A stretch of DNA of 64,000 nucleotides. It comes from a virus. A model generated the notes under the pieces. The model saw nothing but the letters and a program-made list of their open reading frames with translations, was not told the origin of the DNA and searched no databases. Positions within the stretch are counted from its first letter, which is position 1. Every line of letters starts with the position of its first letter. Where the stretch lies: the UHGV virus genome UHGV-1351772; one strand, written 5' to 3'. Shown in pieces: positions 13,646-59,051 of this stretch. A program made the position numbers and the translations under genes.

Positions 13646-15358
13646 TTATTGATTAAACCATGCTACTTCTTCGCATTTCTTTCTGTTTTGAATTAACAGA
13701 AATTCTGCTAACATGTTCTGAAGTCGCGGATGAGGTGAATAGTCCAACATCACTGTCCCACACCGTAACATTCTGGCTGCTTCCGGTGTTGCCCTGAGAT
13801 TGAAGTTGAACGGTGCAATATGTTCACGAACCAACAAGCTGAGAGAATCCTTCAATGTTGATTGTTCGTAAGTATTACGATGCTTACGGTATGCTTGTGG
13901 ATAATATCTATCCGTTTTTATTTTAATCTCATTATCGATTGGCTCGATAGGATACCCGCCATTTAGCGGTGCCCGGATCATTTCACAACTTAACAACTGT
14001 GCAATCTCAGGCATTCCGTAATAGATGTAAACGGCTTGGGATATACCCATCGCGTTCTTAAACGCTTCTGCGTCGATTTCCTTGTATGTACGACGATCTG
14101 CAAATCGGTGCATCACTGCCGCCACCAACCATTCGTAGAGTTCGTAGAAAGGATATTGATGGTTAATGTTGATGGAATCTATCAACACTTTCACATCAGC
14201 GGGAGCAATATCGAGATTCAAAGCACGCACCGCACGACGATAGTCATTAAAGAATTCTTGAGTACGAACGAATTCCTTCATTGGTGCTTTAGTCCGAGCT
14301 TGAACCAGGTCAATCGACGAAGTTTTCCCCTTCTCGCCGTTGAACATGATTTTCTCAGGATTCGCTTTTAGCATCACGTTTTGACCGGAAATTTTTCCCG
14401 CGAAGCCCGTTTCAATTTCTTGCCGAATATTGAAATACATCCCCGCCACGATGTTGTTTTCAACCATCGTACCTGGTGGTAGTTCGGCACCGATTAACTT
14501 CATCGCAATTAAACGGATAACGGCGAACGCTATGATGTATTCCTCTACCATATCCGTACCGTAGCCGCAGATAGATGCCAGGACGGTAAGGTTTGCAGTA
14601 TTAGGTCCTTTACTCCCCCCGTCCTGAACTTTCGAAATCACCGACACTAAAAACTCACGCAACTTTGTAATGGCTGGCAGTGTAGCAATCTCGGTATCAG
14701 ACAACAGTTCCATGCAGTAGGTCAGGTTATAAACACTTTTGCGCTTCGACTCAACAGAAGCACGTGTTGCAGGAAAAGCGTCCAAAATCAAGAATACGGG
14801 AATAAACGGTTTTGTCATCAAAGACAAAATCACCAATTCGTAATAATCTTGTACGATATACGTCATCTCTTTTGGATAATTCGACGACATCTCTTCGTAC
14901 GTTTCGTGGACGTTTTGAGGAATCCACACCGAACCGTGTGGATAAAGCTGGCGGAATCTATCTGCGTGATGAAATTTAGCAATTCTCGCGACGAGCGTGG
15001 GGACGTGTTCACGAATAACTTCTGGGGGTTCATTAGCTAACAACTCTAATTCTTCGTAAACTGAAAACAGTTCGCTTTTCTCTTCAGGTGTTAAAGTTGA
15101 CCAATAACGCTCGATTTCCATGAACATGATTTTATCGTGCGTTACGATCTGTCCGAAACTATCGCGTACGTCTGGCACATTCACGTCTTTACGTCCATTT
15201 CGGAAACCATTAAACGCGACCTCTTTTTCGCCGTACTTTATCACTAAACGGTCACGATTCTTTTCAATGCGCATTTTAAAATCTCCAGGAATAACATAGT
15301 CGTCCACTAAGATAAAATCTATCTCAGATAACTTCGACTGTATTCTACACACATACAC
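13646..15358 (-). CDS. hypothetical protein (570 aa)
   Basis: Long minus-strand ORF in operon context; no motif recognised. Confidence 0.55.
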   Translation of the reverse strand: MYVCRIQSKLSEIDFILVDDYVIPGDFKMRIEKNRDRLVIKYGEKEVAFNGFRNGRKDVNVPDVRDSFGQIVTHDKIMFMEIERYWSTLTPEEKSELFSVYEELELLANEPPEVIREHVPTLVARIAKFHHADRFRQLYPHGSVWIPQNVHETYEEMSSNYPKEMTYIVQDYYELVILSLMTKPFIPVFLILDAFPATRASVESKRKSVYNLTYCMELLSDTEIATLPAITKLREFLVSVISKVQDGGSKGPNTANLTVLASICGYGTDMVEEYIIAFAVIRLIAMKLIGAELPPGTMVENNIVAGMYFNIRQEIETGFAGKISGQNVMLKANPEKIMFNGEKGKTSSIDLVQARTKAPMKEFVRTQEFFNDYRRAVRALNLDIAPADVKVLIDSININHQYPFYELYEWLVAAVMHRFADRRTYKEIDAEAFKNAMGISQAVYIYYGMPEIAQLLSCEMIRAPLNGGYPIEPIDNEIKIKTDRYYPQAYRKHRNTYEQSTLKDSLSLLVREHIAPFNFNLRATPEAARMLRCGTVMLDYSPHPRLQNMLAEFLLIQNRKKCEEVAWFNQ

Positions 15359-16110: not shown

Positions 16111-16947
16111 TTAGCGAGACAATCTACGAAGGAACTCAATGACAAAGGGCTCGTTAACCAACTTCAAGCAACTGTAAATACGATCCATGGTCGTATCTTG
16201 TCGCCAGTGGTATTTCTCGGCGGTATTCAACACCACCTTACGAACCTTTCTGTCAAGTGGGGAGAACATATACCCATCGCCAAATAGCGTTAGAAACGCC
16301 TTGTTAAACGGGATCTGTTCGGGTTTACCGTAAAGCTTCGTGTACCATTCTAACCGACCTTTAATCTTGCCCGTGTGTGATTCTAGCAGATTCAACAGCG
16401 GGAAATCTTTGTAGGCCAGCAGATCGGCGGGGTAATGGGTTAAAATCAATGTGTCATGCTGCCCTTTCGGAAACACATCGAAGCTTTTGAATTGCTCAGG
16501 GTATTTTTCACCGTATAACTTTAACGTATCGTGTTCTAACGCATTAAAGTGGTGCTGGTTAGGTGTCATCTTTTCCTGCCCTCCCGCAATCGTACGGAAC
16601 GCTGCTTCGGGGAAGATTCTGTTCGCACTTTTATACGTACAGATATAGGGGACACATAGCACCGAAGGCGCTACCGCTTTCGCGGTAGCGTTAATAGAAG
16701 CAATATCTTCTTCAATCGATGCCAGCAACACTTCAGGTGTTAATCGTTCACGATTCGTTTCAAACGCGTAAAACGCGTTACGGAACAACGTCCGTAGATT
16801 CAGGTAAATATCCTGATACTTGTGGATAGGGACAGGACCCTTCCAATCGGCATATTCTCCTTCATGGAGAAGCCCTTCAAAAGCCAACGATGTAGCAATT
16901 GACATTTGATAAAACCCAAACGTGCGATCAACACTGATTGGGGTCAT
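16111..16947 (-). CDS. hypothetical protein (278 aa)
   Basis: ORF immediately downstream of and overlapping the nuclease gene (ATGA). Confidence 0.5.
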   Translation of the reverse strand: MTPISVDRTFGFYQMSIATSLAFEGLLHEGEYADWKGPVPIHKYQDIYLNLRTLFRNAFYAFETNRERLTPEVLLASIEEDIASINATAKAVAPSVLCVPYICTYKSANRIFPEAAFRTIAGGQEKMTPNQHHFNALEHDTLKLYGEKYPEQFKSFDVFPKGQHDTLILTHYPADLLAYKDFPLLNLLESHTGKIKGRLEWYTKLYGKPEQIPFNKAFLTLFGDGYMFSPLDRKVRKVVLNTAEKYHWRQDTTMDRIYSCLKLVNEPFVIEFLRRLSR

Positions 16948-18092
16948 TTGATGCTCCTGATAATGTCAGTGACAATTTGTGCATCGTATTTAAACGGCAC
17001 TAATGCTTCTAACAAAATCGCTTCCACATTCTCTTCAGAGATGGTTTCCTCGACCTCTGCGTCGATGGCAAAACCGGCTGCGAGAATTTGCTCCTCTTCA
17101 GGCGTACGTATACGCGTACCTGAAATATGGAATGAATATTGTGATTTCCAACGAGTGATGGCTTCCGCCAATGGAGAATCAGGGTAATATTCAATTTCCA
17201 ATCGTCCTATCATTGAGGACGGATGAGTATCGATGTACTCAAGCGCAGAGAGACATTTCGCGTACTGCGATTCATAGTCCTCCTCCGCAGCAATTTTAAT
17301 CTGCGGGCAAGCGCGTTCATTAACCAAGAAATAATCTCTGGCTAAATCAGGAGTGAAATCGACAATAGCAAAGCCTTTGTCCTCTTCTTCACCCATTGCC
17401 AGGCGATCAGGGCTGCCTGGTACACGAATCTTACCCAATTGTTTCCTACGATGATCGTGATGGATGATAATCAAATGCTTGACTAACGGTTCCCAAAAAT
17501 CCGTATGGAAAAAGCGGGTAGACTCAACGGGAACTTGGAACTGAAAGCAGCCATGCATAAAGCAGAAATCCATCTGCTGTATACCACGCGTGGCTAATAA
17601 TTCAGCCATTTCCTGTTCTGTTGCGGTAGCATCAATGGATTCAGAACCCAGGGCTTTATACTCGTCCTGGACCCAACCGACTGTCGCTTCTAACGCCTCG
17701 TCGTAAAACACGCCAATCTTATCCAGATACAAACAATCTGCACCCACCGCCTGATTTAACTCTTCGACGATTTTCGATTGTTTGTGATCGTGGGAGGGTG
17801 TTCCTTCCAAGACACGAATAGCAGTATTCGTCTGTTTGGCCCAGAGCAATAACCAAGTTAAAAACCCTATGGCTTCCTGAGAATCTTCTTGCCGCAAATG
17901 CCGGGAATCATCAAATAAATCACCAGCTATATAAATAGCGTCAATCGTATTATCGAACCGTTCTAAGGTTTCCTTGAGCACGTTAACAATGTGCCACGTC
18001 GGTACACGACGGTGCAGTAAATGTACATCGCCCGTTGAGAAAATGCGCTTAACGCCAACTGGTTTCGGTGGCGGATTAGTAATCCTCTTCAT
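16944..18092 (-). CDS. Mre11/SbcD-like calcineurin-type phosphoesterase (nuclease)
   Basis: Ordered phosphoesterase motifs: GDVH (I), IAGDLFDD (II), EGTPSHD (III), FMHGCF (IV), IIHHDH (V). Confidence 0.6.
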   Translation of the reverse strand: MKRITNPPPKPVGVKRIFSTGDVHLLHRRVPTWHIVNVLKETLERFDNTIDAIYIAGDLFDDSRHLRQEDSQEAIGFLTWLLLWAKQTNTAIRVLEGTPSHDHKQSKIVEELNQAVGADCLYLDKIGVFYDEALEATVGWVQDEYKALGSESIDATATEQEMAELLATRGIQQMDFCFMHGCFQFQVPVESTRFFHTDFWEPLVKHLIIIHHDHRRKQLGKIRVPGSPDRLAMGEEEDKGFAIVDFTPDLARDYFLVNERACPQIKIAAEEDYESQYAKCLSALEYIDTHPSSMIGRLEIEYYPDSPLAEAITRWKSQYSFHISGTRIRTPEEEQILAAGFAIDAEVEETISEENVEAILLEALVPFKYDAQIVTDIIRSIK

Positions 18093-19801: not shown

Positions 19802-20086
19802 TTACCCCGCCAATTTTAATAATTCCGAGTCAAGCGCGATACCGGCTTCCAAGTCCTCTTCAGTATCCTGGAAGAAACTGTTTATGTTGCTGATATTCTC
19901 GTTATGGAGAATCATGCAACTCGAAACCTCGTCCACATTCGTGCTTGACATAAACCCGTTGTCTGGGCGATAAGCCATGCCCAGTTCCATTTCAATCTGG
20001 TCGATTGCCAATCTACATTGTAACTGGTCGCCATCGAAATCCTGTTTGTCCACTCCATTCCTTTTGGAGCAGGTGTGCAATGACAC
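19802..20086 (-). CDS. RNA polymerase beta-prime catalytic segment (DFDGDQ), probable exon 2 of the beta-prime N-terminal gene
   Basis: Translation begins VSLHTCSKRNGVDKQDFDGDQLQ, matching the universal NADFDGDQ Mg-binding motif; listed start is GTG and an in-frame TGA lies 5 codons upstream, so it is unlikely to be an independent gene. Confidence 0.5.
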   Translation of the reverse strand: MSLHTCSKRNGVDKQDFDGDQLQCRLAIDQIEMELGMAYRPDNGFMSSTNVDEVSSCMILHNENISNINSFFQDTEEDLEAGIALDSELLKLAG

Positions 20087-20445
20087 CCTCCCATGCTTTC
20101 ACATGGGCACAGACTATATCATAACCGTAGGTATTGCTACCCGTAGGTCTCCCCCACTTCGCCGCTAAACTAAGCAGCTACTCTACTCGGTTTTACCCTT
20201 TCGATAGTCGTTGAACGATTTTCATCGCTGCTGGTTATCCATTATCACAACCCTTAGCATTATTGGTTAGCATAGGTTATCTTACGAATTGTTTCTGACT
20301 TTCGCCACCCTGTCGGGATCGTAAGCTTTAGGGGTTTCCAGCAATTCGAGGGATACGCACTAGAGGTTTCCCGTCTAGTGGGCCAGTGTTTAGCATTAGG
20401 TGCTTTGATGACGCGATCAGAAATACGCAGAGAACATTGTGTTAC
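20084..20445 (-). other. group I self-splicing intron (ORF-less), boundaries approximate (+/- 20 nt)
   Basis: Minus-strand core elements in canonical order: P aattgctggaaa (20335..20346), Q aaccagcagc (20227..20236), R gttcaacgacta (20205..20216), S atgatatagtct (20111..20122), P9 hairpin cccatg-tgaaag-catggg (20090..20107), with a G before the exon-2 frame. Confidence 0.65.
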
Positions 20446-21759
20446 ATCTGTCAGTACCGCTGAGATGAACAATGTCTGAATAGAAAGTTGAACCAATGTT
20501 GGGTTACGCAGAACTTCCAACATTAAGCCGAATCCGCCGGGGGATTCTTTAATCAACTCATTAATAATTTCATGTACCAACGGTACATACTGCATTGCCG
20601 CAAATGCAATGATGCGCTCACATTGTCGAGGTGTATAATCACGTCGACCTAACTTGTTCTCAATGTGAACACTCGCCAACGGAACCAACCAACGCCAAGG
20701 CGCAATAACTTTCAACGCATCATGAGGTTCAGAGATAGGAGAGATAGTCACACGTCCGCCCCACGGTACGTGTGTTGACCCGAGTTTTGCCCGATAGAAC
20801 CCAGGTTTACCTTCCATCACTTCCTGACGATGGTCAATATAGAAATACGCAAGCTGTCGATTCGCTTTGATCGCACGACGAATAATAAATCGTGGTTCGA
20901 TACGGCGTGCATTCGTGTACAACAACGCCACATTTTTTACTGCGTCGATAGCGCTGGTATAAACCGGATCGATAAAAATACCTTGTCGGCGCTCCTCCGT
21001 AACGATCAGTTTTGATGAAATAATCGGAAGGTGTCTTGGAAAGAATGAGAACGATTGTTCCTGAAAGAACTCACGCCATTCTAAGCGCACGCGCTCACTC
21101 TCATAACGGTTATTTTTCGTTGGTGGATAAATCTCCTTCCAAGCTTCCGGAGACGTAAGGATATTAAAGACGGTTCGATGGTGGTCGATAAAGTTTCGAA
21201 TTCCCCGTTCGAAGCCATGTTCGCCGAGTATTCTTTTCACCACGCGAGCACGTGTTCCCTCGTCCTTTTCTGGATGGTAGTACGGATCGATTAGCCACAG
21301 CAGTAAATCAGACCCGCGTTCTACCGTCACTTTGTTACGATTAAATTTTTTCAGCTTAGAGCCAAAGAAGGCATTAAAGAGAGACCAAAAACGTGGATTG
21401 ATAAAGTTACCCATCTCATCGGGAGCGCGTAACCAGACATCAGACGTAATCCGATGTTCAGAAACAACATGTCCGCAATGTGGGCAACGAAGCCCAAGAT
21501 TATAACGATGGGTAATAGGTGATTCGCAGGTCAGACTGCAAATAGGAGCCGAGTTGAGTGTTTCATCAACGATTCGGTTTTGGAGTATTTGGTTAATCAT
21601 CTCCGACGCTTCGATGGTATCCATCGTTGCAGCAACGTCATTGATAATAATCGGTGGTTTGTAGCCTTTTTCCTCCGCTTCTTGTATACAGTCACGTAAC
21701 ATCTTGTCGTGACTAATTAGTCGCCCCGAAATCCCGTAATATTCTAGTTTATGTTCCAC
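20260..21759 (-). CDS. multisubunit RNA polymerase beta-prime subunit, N-terminal part (set A), exon 1; last ~55 codons are probably intron read-through
   Basis: Cys cluster CSLTCES...CPHCGH (zinc ribbon), GKPGFYRAKLGSTHVPWGGRVTISPI matching [27 protein letters not shown], and VLRNPTLVQLSIQTLF matching VLLNRAPTLHRLGIQAF; homology stops ~25 codons before the expected NADFDGD. Confidence 0.6.
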   Translation of the reverse strand: MEHKLEYYGISGRLISHDKMLRDCIQEAEEKGYKPPIIINDVAATMDTIEASEMINQILQNRIVDETLNSAPICSLTCESPITHRYNLGLRCPHCGHVVSEHRITSDVWLRAPDEMGNFINPRFWSLFNAFFGSKLKKFNRNKVTVERGSDLLLWLIDPYYHPEKDEGTRARVVKRILGEHGFERGIRNFIDHHRTVFNILTSPEAWKEIYPPTKNNRYESERVRLEWREFFQEQSFSFFPRHLPIISSKLIVTEERRQGIFIDPVYTSAIDAVKNVALLYTNARRIEPRFIIRRAIKANRQLAYFYIDHRQEVMEGKPGFYRAKLGSTHVPWGGRVTISPISEPHDALKVIAPWRWLVPLASVHIENKLGRRDYTPRQCERIIAFAAMQYVPLVHEIINELIKESPGGFGLMLEVLRNPTLVQLSIQTLFISAVLTDVTQCSLRISDRVIKAPNAKHWPTRRETSSAYPSNCWKPLKLTIPTGWRKSETIRKITYANQ

Positions 21760-21770
21760 GCCGAATCCTC

Positions 21771-21814
21771 AACAAAAAAAGAGAGGGAAGGGACAGGGGG
21801 TTTTCCCCTGTCCC
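21771..21814 (-). terminator. strong intrinsic terminator
   Basis: gggacagggg-(g)tttt-cccctgtccc hairpin followed on the minus strand by CTCTCTTTTTTTGTT, directly after the stop of the 615-aa gene. Confidence 0.7.
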
Positions 21815-21843
21815 TCAACTACTGCTTACTACTTACCAACTTA

Positions 21844-23691
21844 TTAGAAAGTCGGACGCCAGTCAGTTGCAGCGAAGGACATACCGAAATCGCTACCAAA
21901 TGCGTTAGGACCGCTACCAGACAGCGCGAAGTTCTCATTACCCGTGTTAACAAACACAGAGTGAGTGAGGCTGTTCGCTGCGGTAACACCATTCACCTGG
22001 AAGTTGCAGTTTTCAGTAATGTATTCCACCAGTGCTTTACCAAACAGCGGATTGATCGCCAGGTCAGACGCTTCACCCGTTACCTGCGGCTGTTTGCTAC
22101 CGAACATGGACGCAGCCATTTTCAGCAGGTACAGACGCTGGTCACGCGCATTCAGATAGCGGTGAGAGTAGGACTGTGCACTGATGTAGTCGATCGCATC
22201 GCGTTGGTTATCACCCACTTTAGTCAGAGCGGAAACCAAGTCCATATCCTGGAAGCTGCGTTTCTGGCTGTTGCTGAAATACTGACCAGAGATGGTCGGG
22301 CAACCGGCAATAACAACGTGTTTGCACTCGAAGTTGGTGACATTGCCCAGCAGTGCTTTGAAGCGAGTGCTGAACTTAGTCGCGCCGTTGCTGGCCATGT
22401 TATCCAGGATATTGAACAGGGTGTACAGTGCGTTGGTGTTACCCATCCCGATTTCGCTCAGGAGAGTAGACAGGCCACCGATACCGTTACCTGCACGATG
22501 GTTCACCACCAGGGCCGCAGTCGGGTTAGCGAAGGTGTCCAGGCATTTCTCGATAACTTCACGGTTACCGTCGATTTTGCTCAGGTCAGGTTTTTCGCTG
22601 CCCCATTCTACATACTCCAGAACGCGGGAGAAGCGGCGATCGGTTTTGTTCAGCGACTGCATGAAACGTTCACGCCAGCCACCAATAGTGGCGATTTGTG
22701 CGAACGCGGCCAGTTCAATCAGCTGACGCTCGATAGGTGCCATTGCCCCAGAGGACTGAGAATCCATCAGGGAAACAACCACTTCGGCTTCCAGCTGACG
22801 CAGGTCCTGAGTACCGTTAGTCAGGGTTTGAGGTTTACCTTTATGGCGGAGGTTGATGTAACCAACACCTGCAACGCTCGGATAATTCTGGAGGCGTTCA
22901 GAAGAGAACAGCGTCGGGTTATTATCGTTGTTGCCAGTGCGAGTGTGGTCAACCACAACCATCAGGTCAGCACGTTGTGCAGAACCGTTAACGTCAGTTA
23001 CAGAACCTTCTTCAACTACGCTGACTTGCGCGGTGAAGCGATCAGAACGGGTCATTTTCAGGTAGCCCAGGTAGCCGGAATGACGACCGAAGATACCCAA
23101 TGCAATCTGGCCCATGAGCTGGTTAGCCCATTCTTCGTTCATGGTTTTACCCAGTTCCGGTACGCAGTTCATTACCATGAACTGTACGCTTGGCAGATTG
23201 TGCTGAGTTGCAATCTGGTTAGTGATGTTGTTCATCACACCTTCTTGACTGAACAGCTGCGCCAGGGTGTAGTAGTTTTCTTTACCGTTGATTTCGTAGA
23301 AACGGATGGACTGGCCATGTTCAAAGAACAGGATACCATAGAGCCATTCGTTATGGTTATCGCCGGACGGACCAGCCACGTATGCAGCAGAACCCATTTC
23401 AGAGTTGATGCCGTCAATAACACCCCAACGGAAGTTACGCAGGTATGTGTTCTTCTCCGCCATCTTCTCAATCAGGCTAGTGAACTGAGAAGCAGTGGAC
23501 ACGAAAGACATGTATCCGAAAGCTTTATCGAAAGTAGAGATGTTTTTAGACATCCCACCAAAAGCGTTGGCCGCATTGGTATTATCCACAGTAGCAGCTC
23601 CCGCGCCACCGAAAGACGGAATTGGATCTGCAGCGGAACCAGCAGCACCAGTCACAACGTCGTTTTGATTGTCAATAAACTCTTTAGCCAT
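21844..23691 (-). CDS. abundant 615-aa protein: candidate chimallin (phage-nucleus shell protein); alternative is major capsid protein
   Basis: Strong optimal-codon bias (ggt, cgt, ctg, aac, ttc), two tandem promoter motifs upstream and a strong terminator downstream; ~67 kDa with Gly/Ala/Ser-rich N- and C-terminal segments; directly upstream of the beta-prime N gene, as chimallin is in phiKZ (recalled synteny). Confidence 0.45.
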   Translation of the reverse strand: MAKEFIDNQNDVVTGAAGSAADPIPSFGGAGAATVDNTNAANAFGGMSKNISTFDKAFGYMSFVSTASQFTSLIEKMAEKNTYLRNFRWGVIDGINSEMGSAAYVAGPSGDNHNEWLYGILFFEHGQSIRFYEINGKENYYTLAQLFSQEGVMNNITNQIATQHNLPSVQFMVMNCVPELGKTMNEEWANQLMGQIALGIFGRHSGYLGYLKMTRSDRFTAQVSVVEEGSVTDVNGSAQRADLMVVVDHTRTGNNDNNPTLFSSERLQNYPSVAGVGYINLRHKGKPQTLTNGTQDLRQLEAEVVVSLMDSQSSGAMAPIERQLIELAAFAQIATIGGWRERFMQSLNKTDRRFSRVLEYVEWGSEKPDLSKIDGNREVIEKCLDTFANPTAALVVNHRAGNGIGGLSTLLSEIGMGNTNALYTLFNILDNMASNGATKFSTRFKALLGNVTNFECKHVVIAGCPTISGQYFSNSQKRSFQDMDLVSALTKVGDNQRDAIDYISAQSYSHRYLNARDQRLYLLKMAASMFGSKQPQVTGEASDLAINPLFGKALVEYITENCNFQVNGVTAANSLTHSVFVNTGNENFALSGSGPNAFGSDFGMSFAATDWRPTF

Positions 23692-23739
23692 TTTACTTAA
23701 TCCTTATAAGGTTTAATACAATTGTAGTGTTGGTTCACG

Positions 23740-23765
23740 TAGATAATATCTAGCTAAGATATTTT
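23740..23765. promoter_or_regulatory. conserved palindromic promoter motif (copy b1)
   Basis: tagataatatctagctaagatatttt in the divergent region between 23691 (-) and 23900 (+). Confidence 0.55.
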
Positions 23766-23819
23766 AGAATACACGTAAAACACACATAGCTTAAAATGAT
23801 TAACTACCGAACCATCACA

Positions 23820-23845
23820 TAGATAATATCTTTCTCAGATATTTT
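23820..23845. promoter_or_regulatory. conserved palindromic promoter motif (copy b2)
   Basis: tagataatatctttctcagatatttt, a second copy 80 bp from b1 with 22 of 26 positions identical. Confidence 0.55.
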
Positions 23846-23899
23846 TCAATGTGAGTGAGACTGTGACCGTTTCCTATGTGTAACCCCAAGGAGTAAGTC

Positions 23900-24961
23900 A
23901 TGTTCAGTCAAGCCGAGTTAAACCAAGCAGCCATAAAGGGTAAATTCGAAGACCCTTCCGCTATACAATTGGTCAGTGCCGTAAAAAATAATAATCAGCG
24001 CATTCGCAACTATTTAGAGTCCATTCAAACCCGTGTTGTTTCAGGCCATCTGGTACTCAAAATCTTAGCGGCTATCGGATATGCGGGTGAACCCAGCTAC
24101 GAAGAGATCGAGTGGGCATGTCGACGCAAGCTTTCCGATATCGGTAATGCGCTACACCTAACTTCTGTGGGGGAGTATGGTCAAGTTTTCAACGGGATCT
24201 TTATCGAGGGGCAAGATGAGATTATTTCACTCGTCGCACGTCCTATTGATCCTGAACTGTCTTTTCGTGACTACACACCTGCAGTTTATCTTTATCACGA
24301 GTACACGAATCTTAACTGGAGTCTCGGGAACGGCAAACCCCGTGGCATCAGTATTATTGAAATTAATCTGGTTGCACTGCTATGGCAATACGTTCTTGCA
24401 GAACAATACTACCGAACGCAATCCGAACCGATTAACCGTGTAGTTTACGCGCAACGACACATCATTTACCGTATGTTACCCAGCTACATGAATATTGCTT
24501 TTTTAAATATTCATCGCGCTGTCGCAACGGGTAAAGAAGTCGAACCCGAAACGCCACTTCGTGTTATCCCTACACCACCTTTGCGTGAACTTTCAATTAA
24601 ACACGCAACGCAAGTTTGTAAAGCACTTCGTGCAGGTAAACCTTTACCTGGTGTGGTCATGGCACACATTCCACAGTTCTTTGATGATCCGACACACCCT
24701 ACCACTGCGGTAGACCGCATCCTTTTTAAAGACCCAGGCTCAACCATTCAAGGTAGTTGGCATCGAAACATCGTGAACTGGTATTGGGCGTTGTTCTGCT
24801 TACAGTTCGACAATTCGAGTATGAGCAAATACAAATCCAATTTAATGGTGCGTATAGCCAGATTCGAAGATGCGAAGATATTGGAAAAACTTACACGGTC
24901 GGCTAGAAATTACTATCGACACGAGTTAATTTTACCATTATATCACGCATTAGAAAATTAA
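23900..24961 (+). CDS. hypothetical protein (353 aa)
   Basis: Plus-strand ORF with ATG at 23900 preceded by aaggag; ends at a terminator hairpin. Confidence 0.55.
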   Translation: MFSQAELNQAAIKGKFEDPSAIQLVSAVKNNNQRIRNYLESIQTRVVSGHLVLKILAAIGYAGEPSYEEIEWACRRKLSDIGNALHLTSVGEYGQVFNGIFIEGQDEIISLVARPIDPELSFRDYTPAVYLYHEYTNLNWSLGNGKPRGISIIEINLVALLWQYVLAEQYYRTQSEPINRVVYAQRHIIYRMLPSYMNIAFLNIHRAVATGKEVEPETPLRVIPTPPLRELSIKHATQVCKALRAGKPLPGVVMAHIPQFFDDPTHPTTAVDRILFKDPGSTIQGSWHRNIVNWYWALFCLQFDNSSMSKYKSNLMVRIARFEDAKILEKLTRSARNYYRHELILPLYHALEN

Positions 24962-25193: not shown

Positions 25194-27506
25194 TCATTCG
25201 TCGTCAAAAACCTCTTCTTCGTCTTCATCTTCTTCGTCATCCCCTGCCCTCTCCGATTTCTTAACGTATTGTACTTCCGCCAATTCCTTGTACAATTCGT
25301 CTTTCTCCTCGGCCTTGTCGTAGAAATCTGACAACAACCTCATCCTGTTTTTATCCATCATGAACACACCTAAGCATTCGAGAATGTGATAGTACGGTTC
25401 AACCGTAGAGAAAGCAGTACGACGGATATCTGCAATATCGATCAGTTCTTTAGGGATACCATAGTTTTCCACCAAATGTTCTGGCAGAATCAGTGTTTTA
25501 TATTTACGGAAGTTTGTCTCCTCAAACCACGCCGATGCACCGTTCTTGATAATCGGATCTTCGATACTGTCAATCCACTCTTTAATCTTCGTTTTGTTTT
25601 CCAATGTTACCGGAAGCTTCACTGCATCATACGGCGGTTCTTCCAAATAACCAAACTTCGGACCAAAGATAGCATTATACATTCGGTGGTAATGGTAGTT
25701 CTTCTCATCCTTCTCGTTATAAGCGCTACGTTCCTTGATGTTCGTCGTTTTCAAATACCCTGGATTCCCAGAACGAATAGAATCCATAATCGTGTGTTCG
25801 ATTTGGGCAACCTTTTCCAGCAACGGAATGATTTCGATCTGATCGCCACGGGCAACAACTTCACATAACCCTTTGATGGTGTTCTTAAACTCCTTCATGA
25901 TAATCGGAGGAATGTTAGACGTACGTAAAGACACACCTTTTACTTCCAGCTCGGGATCTTTTTTCAGCTGGCCTTCCTGTCCAGTAATCAATGAGAAGTA
26001 ATGTTTTGCTTTAGTGGTTAATGCAAACGAATCAAACTTAAATTCATTCTTCATTGCATACAGGAACAAACGCTCCTTCGCCACACCGATGTTTGCTGAC
26101 ATACTCGCCATCAAGTGCCGTAAGTGCTGTGTCGCAATATAGATCATCGCATTGGAAACACGGGTAGCTACCTCACCGTAATGTTTACCGGTGTACCAGA
26201 TTGCCCACCATTGCGCAGTCATCATTGTAGAGTCAGTATCAGATACTACCCCTACACGACGAACCACATCCGGCATTCGAGCAATATTGATTGGTAAGTT
26301 TTTCGTGGTAAGAATATTGCGAATCAGTAGCGCGTATTTACCGATCGTTTTCTGTAAGAACACTGCGGAACGAATTAATTCTTTATACCCATCCTGCTGT
26401 TCCCACGGCAACGGTTTTTTATTACCATCAAGTTTCTTAACGTCACTGAACGCTTTACCCATCGGTACTACGTCGGTACGGAACTGCGAGATAATAATCT
26501 GCATATCACCATCGATGGTCTTCTCAGCAGCAACCCAGTCCGTATCAGTCCAGCCTTCGGTATCAACACGCACATCTGGGGTAATTAATGCGCCAATAAA
26601 GTCGCGCATGAATTTATCGTTGTATTTAGCCAGGTGGAAAAAATCACCCATGTAAACAAACGCCGCTCGCGTCAACGCTGATACATTACTAACGTAATGC
26701 TCAACGAACTCCATCCCCTCTTCGTTCTTAAAGTAGAAATCGGCAGAATAATGAATAACCTCCATCACCTCTTCTACCGACGGATAATGAAGCTCATACG
26801 TCTCCATACATTTCTTAAAGCTATTCCAATCGGTTAAAGTACCGATAGATAAGAAATGATCGATAATGCGTGACGGGGTTTCGTAATGTCTATTACCTCC
26901 TAATAAACGCTCATTTCCAGCATTGCCGAACGAAGTTGCAGTACGACAAGTGGACGTCAGTGTGGAGTGTGAGGACTGATTAAAAAGGATCGTGAACGGG
27001 GAGGAAAATGCGCCCGACATACCGTTGTTCAGCGTCTTGACCGCATTCTGTTCGTTCTTTTTGTTGATATTTAATACTACATTGCCCGCTGCTGCTGCTG
27101 CAAACATTTCCTTTTTTACCGCATCACGTTTCGCTACGTTAGCTGCTGTGAATTCAGACAACTTAGAACGTTTGACATGTTCGGGCAAATAAAAAGTTAA
27201 CGAAGGTGCGGAGATAATCTGTTTGTCAATGACGGTTTTAAATAACTTATCGACGGTAGTGTATTTTTCCTCACGATCGCCCGTTTTCTGATTACGCACC
27301 CACATCTTACACACGGGTGATTCGGTTGCTAACTCACCGCCAGGTGCAATAAGAGCATCAACTTCCTGACGACAAAACTCTAAAGGGTATTTTTGTGCGG
27401 TCACGTTATGAATGTATAACGCGACTTGTTCGCGGTAGGCATCGTTGACATCGATATCACGATGGTATTCATCTACCGTTAAACGAAAAGGAGAAATGTA
27501 TTCCAC
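25194..27506 (-). CDS. family-B-like DNA polymerase, polymerase-domain protein (tentative)
   Basis: VVSDTDS (motif C YGDTDS-like), KTLNNGMSGAF (motif B-like KxxxNSxYG), later KAKHY (KKRY-like), in that order; strongly acidic C-terminal tail DDEEDEDEEEVFDDE; no exonuclease motifs seen. Confidence 0.4.
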   Translation of the reverse strand: MEYISPFRLTVDEYHRDIDVNDAYREQVALYIHNVTAQKYPLEFCRQEVDALIAPGGELATESPVCKMWVRNQKTGDREEKYTTVDKLFKTVIDKQIISAPSLTFYLPEHVKRSKLSEFTAANVAKRDAVKKEMFAAAAAGNVVLNINKKNEQNAVKTLNNGMSGAFSSPFTILFNQSSHSTLTSTCRTATSFGNAGNERLLGGNRHYETPSRIIDHFLSIGTLTDWNSFKKCMETYELHYPSVEEVMEVIHYSADFYFKNEEGMEFVEHYVSNVSALTRAAFVYMGDFFHLAKYNDKFMRDFIGALITPDVRVDTEGWTDTDWVAAEKTIDGDMQIIISQFRTDVVPMGKAFSDVKKLDGNKKPLPWEQQDGYKELIRSAVFLQKTIGKYALLIRNILTTKNLPINIARMPDVVRRVGVVSDTDSTMMTAQWWAIWYTGKHYGEVATRVSNAMIYIATQHLRHLMASMSANIGVAKERLFLYAMKNEFKFDSFALTTKAKHYFSLITGQEGQLKKDPELEVKGVSLRTSNIPPIIMKEFKNTIKGLCEVVARGDQIEIIPLLEKVAQIEHTIMDSIRSGNPGYLKTTNIKERSAYNEKDEKNYHYHRMYNAIFGPKFGYLEEPPYDAVKLPVTLENKTKIKEWIDSIEDPIIKNGASAWFEETNFRKYKTLILPEHLVENYGIPKELIDIADIRRTAFSTVEPYYHILECLGVFMMDKNRMRLLSDFYDKAEEKDELYKELAEVQYVKKSERAGDDEEDEDEEEVFDDE

Positions 27507-48524: not shown

Positions 48525-50582
48525 ATGAGTTTTATTCCACGAAACGGCGCGCCATTGAATAACAAGCAAGGGTGGCAGGATAACTCTGTCCCTGAGCTTG
48601 TCCGGACCCCCACGGGTGATCCGATTCATAAGCCGCTGATCTTCACCTTTGCATCACGCGGGGTAGACGACGAGGCGTTCCCGTTATCCGGGGATAATGC
48701 ATTGTCTCTGCTTGGTCGTGATTTGTTCGACCTGCGTGGCGATTACGCGACGTTCAACACACCCTTCCAGGCGATGTTTAATGCCAATGGTAACGAGTGT
48801 ATGTATCAGCGTCTGGTACCGGAAGATGCGAAAGTCGCAGCTGTCCGTCTGGTGGCTGACGTCCTCGAAACCAAAGTTCCTTCATACGAGCGTGTGAACG
48901 GCATTATCCAGTATGAAACTAACGGTAAGCCGAAGAAGAAAGCGGACGTTGATGGCTTGAAAGTGGTTTTCCGTCTGCAAGTTGTCGAAGATGTAAGCAC
49001 CCTGAAAAAAGGTGTGGTTACTGAAGGGACAATGACCGACGAAACTACCCAGGCGAAATCAAAGCTCTATCCGATCTTCGACATTAAAGGCCCGTACGCG
49101 GGTGCTGATGTCAACGGTTTCGGTTTTAAACTGGTTCCGCTGAACGAAAAATCCAGCCCATCTATCGCGTCTGCTTATCAGACCAACGTAGGTGGACGTA
49201 TGTACGCACTGCAATGGTTTGAAACCTTAGCAGGGGTTACATCGCCGGTAATTTGGAAGACCCTTAAAGGTCTTAGCAGCATCAATGTTAGCTTCAAGCC
49301 CGATGCATACTATCAGCCGATGGCTACTCAACTGGACTTCGAAGTCGTTGTTCCAGATGCCTATCGTCAGACGATGCCAGACATCGGTGGTCTGCCGGAC
49401 TACGGTCCTTTCGAAGAGTTCTACATTTACCGTGAAAACCTGGAAACTGTTCTGAAACTGGCACAGTCTAAAATTCAGAATGCGAAACCAGCGATCACCG
49501 ATCCGTATATGGTCGATATCTTCGGCGGCCTGGATTTAACCGGTCAAATGTACGATGGTCTGCAAGTTAGCCCATCTGATGAAGTGGGTAAAGTTGTCTT
49601 TTCTGCTTCTAACATTCACTATCTGCAGGGCGGTAGTGACGGGACGATGGGTAATGATGCTTACGACAAACTCGTGCGTCGTGAGATGAGTCAGTTCCCG
49701 GACGGCGGTAAAGTCCGTTACGATAACGAACTGAAATATTCGTTAGGCTGCTTCTGGGACTCCGGTTTTAGCATGGATACCAAGAAAGTGCTGACCAATT
49801 TCATTGGTCGTTCTCGTAACACGTTCTTGACACTCTGTACTCACGTTTATAACGAAGGTCGTAATGACTTACAAACCGAAGAGAACGTGAAGACAGCGCT
49901 GATCGAAATGATTACGTCCGTGCCTGAGTCGTCCTATTACGGTACCCCGGCGTGCCGTGGGATGATTACTGGCCAGTCTGCTTTCATCCGTAACTCGAGC
50001 TACAAGAAACCGGTTCCGATGTGTTATAGCATTGCGAACTTCTTCTCGAAGTATCTCGGTTCCGGTGAAGGACGTGCAAAACCGGCGTATCGTTTCAGCC
50101 GTGGTGAAGAGACGATCATCGAAGATCTGTACGATTTGAGTATGCCGTGGAAAGGTAACGAGATTTACGCGTCCGACTGGGATGTGTCCCTGGTTACCGC
50201 ACGTTCCCGCGACTACTATCGTTTGTTCATCCCAGCTATCCAGTCCATCTATAGCGAAGAACGTTCAGTGCTGAACAATGCACTGTTTAACTTTATCCTG
50301 ACTTACGTTTATCGTGTCAGCGATCAGGTTTGGGCAGATATGTCCGGTGAAAGCCGTATGACGGACGACGAACGCGCGAAAATGATTGAAAACAAAATCA
50401 CCGAGCGTTTGGAAGGTCGCCTGGATAATATTGCCGACATTACCCCGAGTGCGTATATGACAGCGGACGATAAAGCCAATGGCTACTCTATCACGCTGGA
50501 CATTAAAGCTGAAGGCGGTGTACTGTTGTCGCAGTTCAACACGACGATCAAAGTTTATCGTCGCAACAGTACGGAGGTCTAA
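48525..50582 (+). CDS. putative tail sheath protein
   Basis: 685 aa (phiKZ-type sheaths ~690 aa), strong optimal-codon bias, immediately followed by a ~290-aa gene and a strong terminator; assignment by size, expression signature and gene order, not by motif. Confidence 0.45.
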   Translation: MSFIPRNGAPLNNKQGWQDNSVPELVRTPTGDPIHKPLIFTFASRGVDDEAFPLSGDNALSLLGRDLFDLRGDYATFNTPFQAMFNANGNECMYQRLVPEDAKVAAVRLVADVLETKVPSYERVNGIIQYETNGKPKKKADVDGLKVVFRLQVVEDVSTLKKGVVTEGTMTDETTQAKSKLYPIFDIKGPYAGADVNGFGFKLVPLNEKSSPSIASAYQTNVGGRMYALQWFETLAGVTSPVIWKTLKGLSSINVSFKPDAYYQPMATQLDFEVVVPDAYRQTMPDIGGLPDYGPFEEFYIYRENLETVLKLAQSKIQNAKPAITDPYMVDIFGGLDLTGQMYDGLQVSPSDEVGKVVFSASNIHYLQGGSDGTMGNDAYDKLVRREMSQFPDGGKVRYDNELKYSLGCFWDSGFSMDTKKVLTNFIGRSRNTFLTLCTHVYNEGRNDLQTEENVKTALIEMITSVPESSYYGTPACRGMITGQSAFIRNSSYKKPVPMCYSIANFFSKYLGSGEGRAKPAYRFSRGEETIIEDLYDLSMPWKGNEIYASDWDVSLVTARSRDYYRLFIPAIQSIYSEERSVLNNALFNFILTYVYRVSDQVWADMSGESRMTDDERAKMIENKITERLEGRLDNIADITPSAYMTADDKANGYSITLDIKAEGGVLLSQFNTTIKVYRRNSTEV

Positions 50583-50585: not shown

Positions 50586-51461
50586 ATGTCTATCAAAGAA
50601 CGCATGATTTTACCTGACCAGGGCCTCCACGTCGATGGCGGCCAGTACGATATGGTTAACCCCTTTTCGTCTGGTCAAAACGGTCCGGTCGGCCAGGTTG
50701 GTAAGTTCGTTACCAACGCCCACCGTCTGCGTCGTAACGTAATCGCACGTGTGATGGAATTCCCTCGTTGGGTTGATTACATGCCGAACCCACAACTGTG
50801 GCGTCAGGCAATCAAATCGTTCATCGAGGTTCACACCACGATTACCGGTCTGGACAAATCCCTGAGTGCTGAGTACGTACAGACCCAGCAGGGACGTAAC
50901 AACCGCGTTCAGTATGAAGCTGGTCTGGTAACGGAAGCACTGTCTTCGGTTACGCACACGACCCCGGATAAACTGGGTAAAGTGTATCAGAACATGCTCT
51001 GGGCGTGGTTGGTTTACGGTGTTTGTGATCCGCACACAGGCCACCCTGGTCTGGCGGCAATCAACCCGAACGTGCCAGATCACTTGCCGGATATGTACAG
51101 CATGACAGTGCTGTATTTCGAACCGGATGCGTATCAGCGTAAACCGCAGAACGCTTGGTGGCTGACGAACATGGCTCCTGAGTCTAACGGTCAGGATATC
51201 GGTGAACGTGACCCGAACACCGGACCTCAGACCAACGAACTGTCTATCACCTTCACCTCCCAGCAATGGACAGGTTGGGGTCCGATGCAGGCAGCTCAGA
51301 AAGAACTGGAGCGCATGAAGCTTTACGGTCTGCGTCCTTACGAACGCAAACTGTGGCTTACTCCGTCTCAACAGACCAACGGTATCAACCCAGACGTCGA
51401 TGCTACGGCTGGCGGTTATCGTTCTGTGTCCGACGAGCAGATGGCAAATCAGCTTCGTTAA
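50586..51461 (+). CDS. putative tail tube protein
   Basis: 291-aa highly codon-optimised ORF 4 bp after the putative sheath gene. Confidence 0.35.
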   Translation: MSIKERMILPDQGLHVDGGQYDMVNPFSSGQNGPVGQVGKFVTNAHRLRRNVIARVMEFPRWVDYMPNPQLWRQAIKSFIEVHTTITGLDKSLSAEYVQTQQGRNNRVQYEAGLVTEALSSVTHTTPDKLGKVYQNMLWAWLVYGVCDPHTGHPGLAAINPNVPDHLPDMYSMTVLYFEPDAYQRKPQNAWWLTNMAPESNGQDIGERDPNTGPQTNELSITFTSQQWTGWGPMQAAQKELERMKLYGLRPYERKLWLTPSQQTNGINPDVDATAGGYRSVSDEQMANQLR

Positions 51462-57590: not shown

Positions 57591-59051
57591 TTAAAGTTTA
57601 TCGACAAATACTGAGCCTGCGATCCAGTTCAGTACATAGTCAATCATCCAACTGGTTGCGGCTTCTGCCGGGTCGGTGTTCTCAATCATCGCGGTATGAA
57701 TCGTACGCATCAGCGGATCAATTTCGTAGGCGCAGAATACGGAGTTACATGCAGTCCGGATGATAAACAACGTAATGTCTTCGTCTGCGTTGACAAAGAA
57801 ATCATCACAAATACCCATAACAACCTGCTTGACTTCTTCGCGAGTACGCGTCAGTTCGCCAACAGTCAGGTAGCCCTGGTCGAGTTGGTCGATTGCAATC
57901 GAGAACGCTGTTTTCAGCGCCTGACGGTTACGACTTACCCAGTCGAGTTCATTTCGTTTCTGAACGATAATCGCACGACGATTGTAAGCTTCAACGTAGG
58001 CTTTCTGGTTTTCCAGCAGAGATGCGACACGTGCGGAAACGTTATAGTCACCTTCGTCCATCAGGTAAATGGCACCCAACAGGGCTTCAACGATGCCGCC
58101 TTTTTCCAGGTAGTCGTCCATCGTTTCCTGACAGATATAGACGTTTTTCTCGTTGGTATCGTAAGAGTAAACGATGTTACCTGTGGCGACACGGTTAGCC
58201 ACCGCTTTTTCGAAACCGTATACCCAACCGATAGATGTGTAATACGCACGACCCATTTCCGCTTTCCATTTCAGGGCGTCAACACCTGAGTCAGGCCATG
58301 GACGTTCAATGAAGAACGAAGACAACAGCAGTACCAGAACACGTTCTTTTACCATCTCCGGCGCTTTATCTGCAACAGGTACGGTGTAGTTACCTGCCAG
58401 CAGCAGTTTTGCTGCATCGTACATGCTGAGGTTCAGGTCGTTCAGTAATTTACGTACCAGTTCATCGTACGCTTTTACACCTGTTTCCGGAATCTCGATG
58501 TCGGTCGGTACATCGAACTTGATTGGGTCGTAAGTTGTGCCATTACCCATCGGGTTGGCGATTTCTTGAATCAGCGCCTGGACAACCGGGGAATCTACAC
58601 ACGGATCGATACCTACCGGAATCAGGTTCCAGTCTTCGACCAACGGTTTGACATCTTCAATCGTGTTATTCTGGATAACCAGCTGCACAAACGGTTGAAC
58701 AACGTTACGGGCAAAGTCCAGCATCCCGTTGCAACGCTGAATGGCCATGTTTTTCAGTTCGAATAGCGTGGTTTCATGATCGTCAACACGCAGCGCTTCA
58801 ACTTCAACAGCACCGTCACGAATAATCGAAGCTTCCGCTGTACCGTCTACTGGACGTTTAAGCTGCGTAATCGCGGGCAGTTCCTGGAAGAACTGTTCGT
58901 CGGTGATTGTGGTATCGAAAACGCGGGTAGGGTCGACCGCACGGTTGAGCAAATCAACCGGAGAGTCAACGTCTGTGCCAAGCTGAACATTATGCTGTTT
59001 GCACAGTTTCATGGCGTTAGTAACCGCATTCAGCGAGTATAAACTGATCAT
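57591..59051 (-). CDS. hypothetical protein (486 aa)
   Basis: Minus-strand ORF. Confidence 0.5.
   Translation of the reverse strand: MISLYSLNAVTNAMKLCKQHNVQLGTDVDSPVDLLNRAVDPTRVFDTTITDEQFFQELPAITQLKRPVDGTAEASIIRDGAVEVEALRVDDHETTLFELKNMAIQRCNGMLDFARNVVQPFVQLVIQNNTIEDVKPLVEDWNLIPVGIDPCVDSPVVQALIQEIANPMGNGTTYDPIKFDVPTDIEIPETGVKAYDELVRKLLNDLNLSMYDAAKLLLAGNYTVPVADKAPEMVKERVLVLLLSSFFIERPWPDSGVDALKWKAEMGRAYYTSIGWVYGFEKAVANRVATGNIVYSYDTNEKNVYICQETMDDYLEKGGIVEALLGAIYLMDEGDYNVSARVASLLENQKAYVEAYNRRAIIVQKRNELDWVSRNRQALKTAFSIAIDQLDQGYLTVGELTRTREEVKQVVMGICDDFFVNADEDITLFIIRTACNSVFCAYEIDPLMRTIHTAMIENTDPAEAATSWMIDYVLNWIAGSVFVDKL

Follow-up and report, generated by a model that had tools for sequence, protein, structure and literature searches.

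Identification of a Probable Chimallin Gene in a Jumbo Phage Probably Belonging to the PhuZ-Less SPN3US/Asesino Clade

The 615-Residue Product of chmA as a Probable Chimallin

Examination of a 64-kb stretch of viral DNA (64,000 nucleotides, termed here the window) revealed a gene, chmA, whose product is very probably chimallin, the main protein of the phage nucleus shell (estimated probability, about 94%). The source of the window is thereby identified as a nucleus-forming jumbo phage, one that probably belongs to the PhuZ-less SPN3US/Asesino clade of the Chimalliviridae and is so far without a sequenced isolate. That this protein is a chimallin had been proposed in an earlier, sequence-only reading of the window and is now borne out by fold, orthology, synteny with phiKZ and a promoter match. 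The result is confirmatory, with the chimallin family, the PhuZ-less clade and experimental validation having already been published. At the protein level, identity of this lineage to any deposited phage is only about 50%.

The gene was delineated from the ORF list, PHROG 8316, the predicted fold, an hhalign comparison with phiKZ gp54 and orthology:

21844..23691, minus strand: chmA coding sequence, stop codon included

The encoded protein begins with an ATG-specified methionine, has a molecular mass of 67.2 kDa and a pI of 5.5, and matches the PHROG 8316 family with an E-value of 1e-232. Antisense to chmA lies a longer, stop-free ORF of 649 residues (21751..23700, plus strand), the choice of a naive longest-ORF caller, such that the 615-residue ORF could be imagined to be a mere shadow of the real gene. 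The chance of this being so is vanishingly small, given that homologues, namely, the PHROG 8316 family and proteins from 62 phage genomes, exist only for the minus-strand product, that a confident fold, a Shine-Dalgarno sequence with an ATG, and correctly oriented promoters and terminator all belong to the minus-strand ORF, and that the plus-strand translation is nonsense rich in Arg, Val, His, Thr and Cys. Strong codon bias is known to yield long antisense ORFs as a by-product.

Predicted Fold and Profile-Level Homology

The structure search called for by the sequence-only reading was performed with the predicted fold of the 615-residue protein and returned only the chimallins of 201phi2-1, Goslar and phiPA3, with no HK97 capsid protein being found. 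Indeed, the predicted model presents the two-domain chimallin fold, comprising an alpha/beta N-terminal domain and a GNAT-like C-terminal domain, while the HK97 fold (A domain, P domain and E loop) was not found in it. This outcome refutes the explanation that the protein is an HK97-fold major capsid protein, abundant for purposes of head building (hundreds to thousands of copies per head), and leaves that explanation highly improbable, even if the very high codon bias and strong terminator of the gene would likewise fit a structural protein made in large amounts and the size of the product is within a factor of approximately 1.2 of phiKZ-type capsid proteins.

Support for the chimallin assignment also came from hhalign, with phiKZ gp54 aligning to a 26-sequence profile (alignment A2) across 438 colinear columns at a probability of 97.8% and an E-value of 1.1e-12. 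When all PDB sequences were searched using either phmmer with the 615-residue protein or an HMM of 14 close homologues, no chimallin match was obtained, nor was any match obtained when two distant relatives (P0032 and P0035) served as phmmer queries. The relationship to the solved chimallin structures is, therefore, invisible to sequence-only searches. Likewise, Pfam model PF25677 (Chimallin_Phikzvirus; gathering threshold, 27 bits) did not match the 615-residue protein even at E ≤ 10, at which Pfam scans of this protein gave only noise. The same model scores phiKZ gp54 at 1122 bits yet gives nothing for the validated Asesino ChmA. Because of this, and because chimallins of the clade reportedly share only some 10% identity with that of 201phi2-1 (PMC9365700), the failure of PF25677 is weak counter-evidence; the model is clade-specific and its miss is thus no argument against chimallin identity. 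Three relatives carry precomputed PF25677 matches, which a Pfam rescan did not reproduce.

Homologues and Orthology

The best GenBank matches to the 615-residue protein were Asesino gp39 (52.7% identity, 91% coverage), SPN3US_0022, Huxley gp39 and EarlPhillipIV gp24, each of which is entered as a chimallin in SI Table 7 of Laughlin et al. (PMC9365700). The closest characterised relative, Asesino gp039 (ChmA; YP_009290657.1), is 50-53% identical over its full length (618 vs. 615 residues) and, as a GFP fusion, forms a ring around phage DNA, corresponding to the nuclear shell (PMC11724907). The two genes also share their neighbours (divergent gp38 and nvRNAP beta-prime gp40 in Asesino) and a pair of promoter motifs; Asesino is a member of the PhuZ-less clade. 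By contrast, roughly one residue in two is different, the sequences of the N-terminal tails are unrelated and the Asesino beta-prime gene contains no intron.

The SPN3US counterpart (ACQ60_gp244, which is SPN3US_0022; YP_009153316.1/AEP83855.1) shows 51% identity at 92% coverage in an identical local gene order. This protein, still labelled "hypothetical protein" in both GenBank and RefSeq, is listed as a diverged chimallin and has been proposed to build the square lattice seen in SPN3US lysates, with a period of 13.5 nm, as compared to 11.5 nm in 201phi2-1 and Goslar (PMC9365700). Reading the "SPN3US gp244" of the literature as GenBank SPN3US_0244 was considered and rejected, the latter being an unrelated 240-residue protein; the name refers to the RefSeq locus tag ACQ60_gp244.

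In a tblastn search, the 615-residue protein found one location per phage genome in 62 GenBank records. The hosts of all 62 relatives are Erwinia, Salmonella, Escherichia, Cronobacter or Proteus, the host genera given for the PhuZ-less clade (PMC11724907). An exhaustive HMM search of 1.84 billion representatives yielded only 24 matches, mostly full-length and of 580-655 residues. The tblastn and HMM results bear on the possibility that the protein is a diverged paralogue of chimallin fold with another job, such as an active GNAT-type acetyltransferase, an enzyme resembling a toxin or a minor constituent of the shell, with the true shell protein being encoded elsewhere in the genome. Such a scenario is very unlikely: the single tblastn location per genome gives no sign of paralogy, the HMM matches are few and mostly full-length, and tails containing conserved islands (see below) fit a lattice former rather than an enzyme. 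Moreover, both by position and by sequence, the protein is orthologous to the one Asesino protein for which shell formation has been demonstrated, and to the chimallin of which a single copy is listed for each genome of the clade.

All of the 62 GenBank homologues are annotated as "hypothetical," one of them as DUF2019. Since the homologues are so labelled and no member of the clade is picked up by the Pfam chimallin model, automated pipelines will not flag the capacity of these phages to form a nucleus. This annotation gap would be closed by a profile specific to the clade, for example one based on alignment A2.

Gene Neighbourhood and Synteny With phiKZ

The genes flanking chmA were next considered. 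Upstream lies a divergent gene of a conserved chmA neighbourhood:

23900..24961, plus strand: gene for a 353-residue protein of phrog_3938, function unknown, 69% identical to Asesino gp38

In phiKZ, gp52 agrees with this gene in size, position and orientation but presents no BLAST similarity. On the other side, the gene at 21759..19802 (minus strand) encodes the nvRNAP beta-prime N-terminal subunit (phrog_2987, E-value 6e-141; 70% identical to Asesino gp40), in agreement with the earlier placement of the 615-residue ORF directly upstream of such a gene. The same arrangement in phiKZ, as cited in the sequence-only reading, also proved correct, as gp54 is followed by gp55. Indeed, chmA immediately precedes the nvRNAP beta-prime gene in the window, SPN3US, Asesino, Huxley, EarlPhillipIV and phiKZ. 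In the window, SPN3US, Asesino and phiKZ, the shared order extends to a divergent family-B DNA polymerase gene, a divergent gene for a protein of approximately 350 residues, chmA, the nvRNAP beta-prime gene and the SbcD gene. phiKZ gp54, a homologue at the profile level, occupies the same place, lying downstream of the DNA polymerase and the divergent gene, with nvRNAP beta-prime gp55 directly after it. It shows no BLAST-level similarity to the 615-residue protein, and the Pfam model built on Phikzvirus does not score the clade.

The window also encodes a DNA polymerase that is a hallmark of the Chimalliviridae (PF20286, divDNApol; E-value 4.5e-278) and two sets of multisubunit RNA polymerase genes, with several beta and beta-prime PHROGs being represented, including a vRNAP subunit of 1388 residues. 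A tblastn search with phiKZ PhuZ gave no match within the 64-kb window of the approximately 240-kb genome, as expected. The entire SPN3US/Asesino clade (the "phuzzywuzzyviruses") builds a nucleus despite being without PhuZ (PMC11724907), and the PhuZ check proposed in the sequence-only reading would therefore be uninformative. Searches of the window by tblastn with phiKZ gp54 and gp52 also gave no match and are uninformative given the divergence involved.

Expression Signals Around chmA

Codon bias was assessed across 54 genes of the window (mean E. coli CAI 0.325, SD 0.088 for genes encoding at least 150 residues). With a CAI of 0.604 (z = +3.2), chmA ranked first, as it did by ENC (36.7), and a reference-free PCA of RSCU values gave it the extreme position along axis 1. 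The sequence-only reading, which had assigned the strongest bias to chmA together with the sheath gene, was thus right as to the former and wrong as to the latter, as the sheath gene (48525..50582, plus strand; phrog_3242) ranked sixth, with a CAI of 0.433. Ranks 2 and 3 were taken by 50586..51461, encoding a virion structural protein and adjoining the sheath gene, and 57591..59051, of unknown function.

The following signals flank the coding sequence:

23815..23846, minus strand: distal early-promoter-like motif, AAAAATATCTGAGAAAGATATTATCTATGTGA, core 130 nt before the ATG, kept in five relatives
23735..23766, minus strand: proximal early-promoter-like motif, TAAAATATCTTAGCTAGATATTATCTACGTGA, core 50 nt before the ATG
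23701..23705, minus strand: Shine-Dalgarno sequence AAGGA, 9 nt before the ATG, as read from the sequence
21774..21816, minus strand: intrinsic terminator, with a G+C-rich stem of 12 bp, a 5-nt loop and a run of seven T residues, supported by folding energy

Two tandem copies of a putative early-promoter motif had been described upstream of the gene. Both were found, as mismatch-free occurrences of AGATATTATCTAYGTGA at 23735-23751 and 23815-23831 (minus strand; spacing of 80 nt), and the tandem arrangement is kept in five related phages. Allowing for up to one mismatch, the core TAGATATTATC was matched 10 times, as compared to 1.1 times expected, with none of 100 shuffles reaching 10. Exact copies of the core occur only on the minus strand, 29-62 nt before a Shine-Dalgarno sequence and start codon except for the chmA pair, which lies at 50 and 130 nt; in the 64-kb window, only chmA is preceded by two copies. 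The reading of these motifs as early promoters agrees with the published early-promoter consensus of related jumbo phages, AKATATTATY..DTG, which the window motifs match (PMC7058600). The cores upstream of the phiKZ gene (TATATTAC) and of chmA (GATATTATC) are, moreover, related. By contrast, a scan for sigma-70 promoters returned 4 sites vs. 11.2 in shuffles, giving no sign of host-type promoters for chmA.

A TAAGGA or AAAGGA Shine-Dalgarno sequence is found in five of the six phages aligned, with EarlPhillipIV presenting TAGGAA. The strong terminator noted earlier downstream of chmA is also present, its stem (21816..21788) including eight G-C pairs and folding with an energy of -27 kcal/mol (z = -4.0 vs. 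shuffles). Together, the promoters, CAI and ENC values and terminator suggest that chmA is expressed early and abundantly.

Tails and Core of the Protein

Both termini had been described as flexible and rich in Gly, Ala and Ser. In agreement, these residues account for 39% of positions 1-64 and 35% of positions 573-615, as compared to 24% of the core, and AlphaFold predicts both tails to be disordered (residues 1-63 and 574-615). The protein can be divided as follows:

23554..23691, minus strand: codons 1-46, variable Gly/Ala-rich N-terminal tail, predicted to be disordered (mean conservation 0.40; pLDDT 29-39 in model 2)
23500..23553, minus strand: codons 47-64, candidate NTS (intra-tetramer docking segment) containing the island F54-D-x-A-F-G59, by conservation and position
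21976..23499, minus strand: codons 65-572, two-domain core, with the alpha/beta N-terminal domain extending to approximately residue 225 and followed by the GNAT-like C-terminal domain
21907..21963, minus strand: codons 577-595, candidate CTS1 (inter-tetramer segment), HSVFVNTGNENFALSGSGP, by conservation and position
21847..21894, minus strand: codons 600-615, candidate CTS2, SDFGMSF... at the C-terminus, by conservation and position

Codons 1-46 correspond to the dispensable N-terminal tail of 201phi2-1 chimallin (residues 1-47), while the candidate NTS, CTS1 and CTS2 agree in position with the NTS (48-61), CTS1 (590-611) and CTS2 (622-631) of that protein. Within the variable N-terminal tail, D55, A57, F58 and G59 are conserved at approximately 90%. 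The candidate CTS1, though predicted to be disordered, has a mean conservation of 0.79, higher than the 0.64-0.71 of the core, and S-D-F-G-[ML] in the candidate CTS2 (island at residues 600-606) is moderately conserved. Judging by position and conservation, these segments may serve as NTS, CTS1 and CTS2. In 201phi2-1, self-assembly as assayed by SEC-MALS is lost when such segments are truncated.

The structurally characterised chimallins, namely, 201phi2-1 gp105 and Goslar gp189 (PDB 7SQQ-7SQV and 8IGG) and phiPA3 PhuN (8FNE), share 13-16% identity with the 615-residue protein, a distance not bridged by plain HMM searches, and come from phages that encode PhuZ. Their C-terminal tails comprise 50 residues, as opposed to 43 in the window protein, and contain different motifs, nothing in the solved structures corresponding in sequence to the conserved SLFxNxGxExFxLSGxG and SDFG[LM] of the clade. 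It is conceivable, if on balance unlikely, that chimallin of this clade forms a lattice unlike the 201phi2-1/Goslar type, held together by a shorter C-terminal tail with motifs of its own. Were this so, it would represent a second architectural solution, one for a PhuZ-independent, non-rotating phage nucleus.

Proposed Assembly of the Phage Nucleus

Given the signals upstream of the gene, virion-packaged phage RNA polymerase would transcribe chmA from the two tandem early promoters just after genome injection. A short, abundant mRNA and much protein would then result from the good Shine-Dalgarno sequence, the strong terminator and a codon usage better adapted to the host than that of any other gene in the window. 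According to the predicted fold and homology, each protomer would consist of a compact core, with the GNAT-like C-terminal domain being catalytically dead, held between flexible tails. [quoted passage not shown] On the basis of experimental work with Asesino, 201phi2-1, phiKZ and Goslar, this lattice would enclose replicating phage DNA and exclude host nucleases and CRISPR effectors; transcription would proceed inside, where the nvRNAP specified by the adjoining gene would act, and translation outside. As such, the phage is predicted to resist DNA-targeting CRISPR and restriction systems, with transcription and translation being uncoupled during infection.

A Group I Intron in the Adjacent Beta-Prime Gene

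The beta-prime gene beside chmA was observed to contain an ORF-less group I intron of 350 nt within the NADFDGD motif:

20392..21759, minus strand: exon 1 of the nvRNAP beta-prime N-terminal subunit gene (start uncertain by two codons), from phrog_2987, tblastn with Asesino gp40 and phiKZ gp55, and the L007 junction
20042..20391, minus strand: group I intron of 350 nt without an ORF, located between NA and DFDGD, from Rfam RF00028 and L007 boundaries
19802..20041, minus strand: exon 2 of the same gene, beginning DFDGDQ, from tblastn and comparison with L007

Rfam model RF00028 scored the intron at 56.9 bits (gathering score 50; E-value 9e-12), with exact boundaries being set against the intron-less allele in L007. 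Boundaries from the Rfam alignment, defining an intron of 308 nt, were rejected, as the product would be in frame but include 14 extra residues, whereas the L007 allele gives 350 nt. Among metagenomic contigs, one that is approximately 96% identical is without the intron, while another, approximately 79% identical, contains an intron that is 98% identical.

Identification of chmA as a chimallin gene

The sequence-only reading had placed an ORF of 615 codons, here termed chmA, at 21844..23691 on the minus strand, and precisely this ATG-initiated ORF was found, preceded by a Shine-Dalgarno sequence (AAGGA) 9 nt 5' of the start and encoding a product of 67.2 kDa (pI 5.5). The opposite strand contains a stop-free ORF of 649 aa (21751..23700, plus strand) that covers all of chmA and exceeds it in length, such that a longest-ORF gene caller selects the wrong strand. 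The possibility that this longer ORF is the true gene found no support, with homologues existing for the minus-strand product and none for the plus-strand ORF. The 649-aa ORF is thus a shadow ORF, arising from the extremely biased codon usage of chmA.

A Pfam search with ChmA yielded no match, and in PHROGs, the protein matched family 8316 (function unknown) over its full length (E 1e-232). In a tblastn search of 50,697 phage records, a single locus per genome was detected in 62 genomes (38-53% identity), all of jumbo phages infecting Erwinia, Salmonella, Escherichia, Cronobacter or Proteus. No close DNA relative was found among deposited phages, with megablast returning only short stretches of 71-75% identity. 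The accessions of the coding sequences hit include those listed as chimallins by Laughlin et al. (2022; SI Table 7), namely, EarlPhillipIV YP_009278336.1, Huxley YP_009293007.1, Asesino YP_009290657.1 and SPN3US YP_009153316.1. [quoted passage not shown] It is unlikely that ChmA is a diverged paralogue with another role, given that only one copy exists in each of the 62 genomes and that the window copy is the orthologue of a validated shell protein.

As to nomenclature, the 'SPN3US gp244' of Laughlin et al. (2022) corresponds to RefSeq ACQ60_gp244 (YP_009153316.1) and GenBank SPN3US_0022; GenBank SPN3US_0244, an unrelated 240-aa protein, was considered and rejected. In several of these phages, RefSeq tags run opposite to the depositors' gp numbers (e.g., Huxley BIZ81_gp244 is gp39).

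Searches of all PDB sequences by phmmer and with a 14-sequence HMM found no match to the solved chimallins, consistent with the reported identity of some 10% between these and members of this clade (PMC9365700). When 1.84 billion cluster representatives were exhaustively searched by HMM, just 24 proteins were recovered, most of 580-655 aa and matching end-to-end. The 26-sequence profile built from these results aligned with phiKZ gp54, the phiKZ nuclear shell protein, when compared by hhalign (97.8% probability, E 1.1e-12, 438 colinear columns). The Pfam family PF25677 (Chimallin_Phikzvirus) gave no score for ChmA, nor for the experimentally validated Asesino protein. Since this family is blind to the clade and the 62 homologues carry uninformative GenBank labels ('hypothetical protein' in all but one, annotated 'DUF2019'), standard pipelines would miss the nucleus-forming status of these phages.

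Predicted fold and tail anatomy

AlphaFold models of ChmA were generated from the 14-sequence (model 1; pTM 0.68) and 26-sequence (model 2; mean pLDDT 78.8, pTM 0.82) alignments. When these were compared to the PDB by Foldseek, nine significant matches were obtained for each model, all being chimallins, namely, 201phi2-1 gp105, Goslar gp189 and phiPA3 PhuN (model 1: E 8e-20 to 1e-16; model 2: E 9e-22 to 9e-18; TM up to 0.72); the tenth match had E > 0.1. The notion that ChmA is instead the major capsid protein is refuted both by the Foldseek results and by Asesino, where a separate gene, gp091, encodes the capsid protein (PMC11724907). Orthology to Asesino gp039, the profile match to phiKZ gp54 and the chimallin-only Foldseek matches together support the earlier assignment of chmA as a chimallin gene. 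The phage carrying it, a new and uncultured jumbo phage, probably belongs to the nucleus-forming, PhuZ-less SPN3US/Asesino clade. Chimallin is already known as a kind and this clade has already been characterized by experiment.

In 201phi2-1 chimallin, a dispensable N tail (residues 1-47) is followed by the NTS (48-61), the N-terminal domain (62-228), the C-terminal domain (229-581), CTS1 (590-611) and CTS2 (622-631), and in vitro self-assembly is lost when NTS or CTS segments are deleted. The following segments were recognized in ChmA:

Residues 1-46: variable, Gly/Ala-rich, mean conservation 0.40
F54-D-x-A-F-G59: conserved island
Residues 65-572: core, conservation 0.64-0.71
Residues 577-595 (HSVFVNTGNENFALSGSGP): conservation 0.79, above the core, though predicted to be disordered
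S600-D-F-G-M604: moderate conservation

In model 2, the ordered core spans residues 64-573, with pLDDT values below 50 for residues 1-63 and 574-600 and a mean of about 57-58 for residues 601-615. Both termini, previously proposed to be flexible, are rich in Gly, Ala and Ser and are predicted to be disordered. As strong conservation without autonomous folding is expected where a peptide becomes ordered only on a neighboring protomer, the conserved segment predicted to be disordered may dock in this manner.

Genomic context of chmA

In the window, the order of genes is DNA polymerase, small genes, a 353-aa gene, chmA, nvRNAP beta-prime, three small genes and an SbcD-like nuclease, these including:

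25194..27506, minus strand: divergent family-B DNA polymerase (PF20286, E 4.5e-278)
23900..24961, plus strand: divergently transcribed 353-aa gene of a function-unknown family (phrog_3938), a constant neighbor of chmA
16944..18092, minus strand: SbcD-like nuclease

This entire order, with chmA placed before the beta-prime gene (noted earlier as a phiKZ-like trait), is shared by the window, SPN3US, Asesino and phiKZ. The 353-aa product shares 69% identity with Asesino gp38. In phiKZ, gp52 ('structural head protein') is of the same size, orientation and place, although BLAST revealed no similarity between the two. Other RNAP beta/beta-prime subunit genes, one encoding 1388 aa, and a tail sheath gene are also present in the window. 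No homologue of phiKZ PhuZ was detectable within the 64-kb window, which fits the absence of PhuZ from the entire clade (PMC11724907). A tRNA-Trp (anticodon CCA) was identified at 35681-35756 (minus strand) by ARAGORN and Rfam (60.6 bits).

A group I intron in the adjacent beta-prime gene

The nvRNAP beta-prime gene immediately 3' of chmA, at 19802-21759 on the minus strand, is split by a group I intron, detected as a complete Rfam RF00028 match at 20407..20090 on the minus strand (56.9 bits, gathering score 50; E 9e-12). Related loci on two metagenomic contigs were used for comparison:

L007, 3426-5027: beta-prime gene, no intron
L008, 7927-9884: beta-prime gene, intron present

In L007 (ENA ERZ28646395), ChmA is identical, the DNA is ~96% identical and the beta-prime gene is intact (533 aa). 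This comparison set the intron limits at 20391..20042 (minus strand), i.e., 350 ORF-less nucleotides, with U as the last nucleotide of the 5' exon and G as that of the intron, leading to rejection of the 308-nt intron given by the Rfam alignment boundaries. The spliced product reads ...RVIKAPNA|DFDGDQ..., such that the intron lies inside the catalytic NADFDGD motif, between NA and DFDGD. In L008, the intron is 98.3% identical, as compared to ~79% DNA identity in its flanks and 71% identity in ChmA; the beta-prime orthologues of Asesino, SPN3US, Huxley and EarlPhillipIV lack the intron. This presence/absence polymorphism, together with an intron far better conserved than the exons, suggests that the intron has recently moved horizontally without encoding an endonuclease of its own.

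Codon bias and expression signals

The claim that chmA shows the strongest codon bias was upheld, the gene ranking first of 54 window genes by CAI (0.604, z = +3.2; mean 0.325, sd 0.088 for genes of at least 150 aa). The CAI weights were the Sharp and Li E. coli values; effective number of codons (36.7, again first of 54) and reference-free PCA of relative codon usage (chmA at the extreme of the first axis; axis-CAI correlation 0.95) served as an independent check. The sheath gene, previously thought the equal of chmA, ranked only sixth. Other genes of high rank were:

50586..51461, plus strand: rank 2, virion structural protein adjoining the sheath gene (phrog_3185), CAI 0.523
57591..59051, minus strand: rank 3, 486 aa, function-unknown family (phrog_3841), CAI 0.485
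48525..50582, plus strand: rank 6, sheath gene (phrog_3242), CAI 0.433

High expression is predicted for the phrog_3841 product.

Both signals earlier proposed to flank chmA were found. Downstream, a terminator at 21816..21774 comprises a 12-bp stem, in which 8 pairs are G-C, followed by seven T residues (-27 kcal/mol; z = -4.0 versus shuffles). Upstream, AGATATTATCTAYGTGA occurs free of mismatches solely at 23735-23751 and 23815-23831, at distances of 50 and 130 nt, with chmA being the only window gene to carry two copies. The 11-nt core of this motif yielded 10 matches with at most one mismatch, versus 1.1 expected, and good copies lie on the minus strand only, those outside chmA being located 29-62 nt 5' of Shine-Dalgarno sequences and start codons. 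The promoter-like layout, an A/T-rich run, CAG/GAG, GATATTATC and ..GTGA, agrees with the consensus predicted for related jumbo phages (AWWWWWTTTYARRYAKATATTATYWWADTG in OBP and N1M2; TATATTAC in phiKZ; PMC7058600). Such in silico motifs are reported to be early promoters in all profiled phages and are ascribed to the virion RNA polymerase (PMC7598289). A scan for sigma-70 promoters found sites to be rarer than in shuffled sequence.

In SPN3US, Asesino, Huxley, EarlPhillipIV and one metagenomic relative, both copies are retained 5' of chmA, although the sequence separating the two has diverged; this phylogenetic footprint supports a function for the pair. We infer that ChmA is expressed early and at high abundance. 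The early-promoter-like core, [T/A]AGAT[A/T]TTATC, was located at seven positions:

10112-10122, minus strand
13900-13910, minus strand
15311-15321, minus strand
23742-23752, minus strand (chmA)
23822-23832, minus strand (chmA)
31624-31634, minus strand
39524-39534, minus strand

Genes 3' of the copies not linked to chmA include those encoding a 745-aa RNAP beta subunit (start 10082) and a 542-aa protein (start 15274), as well as ORFs of 107 and 374 aa. The genes behind these seven copies probably comprise the early regulon of the window.
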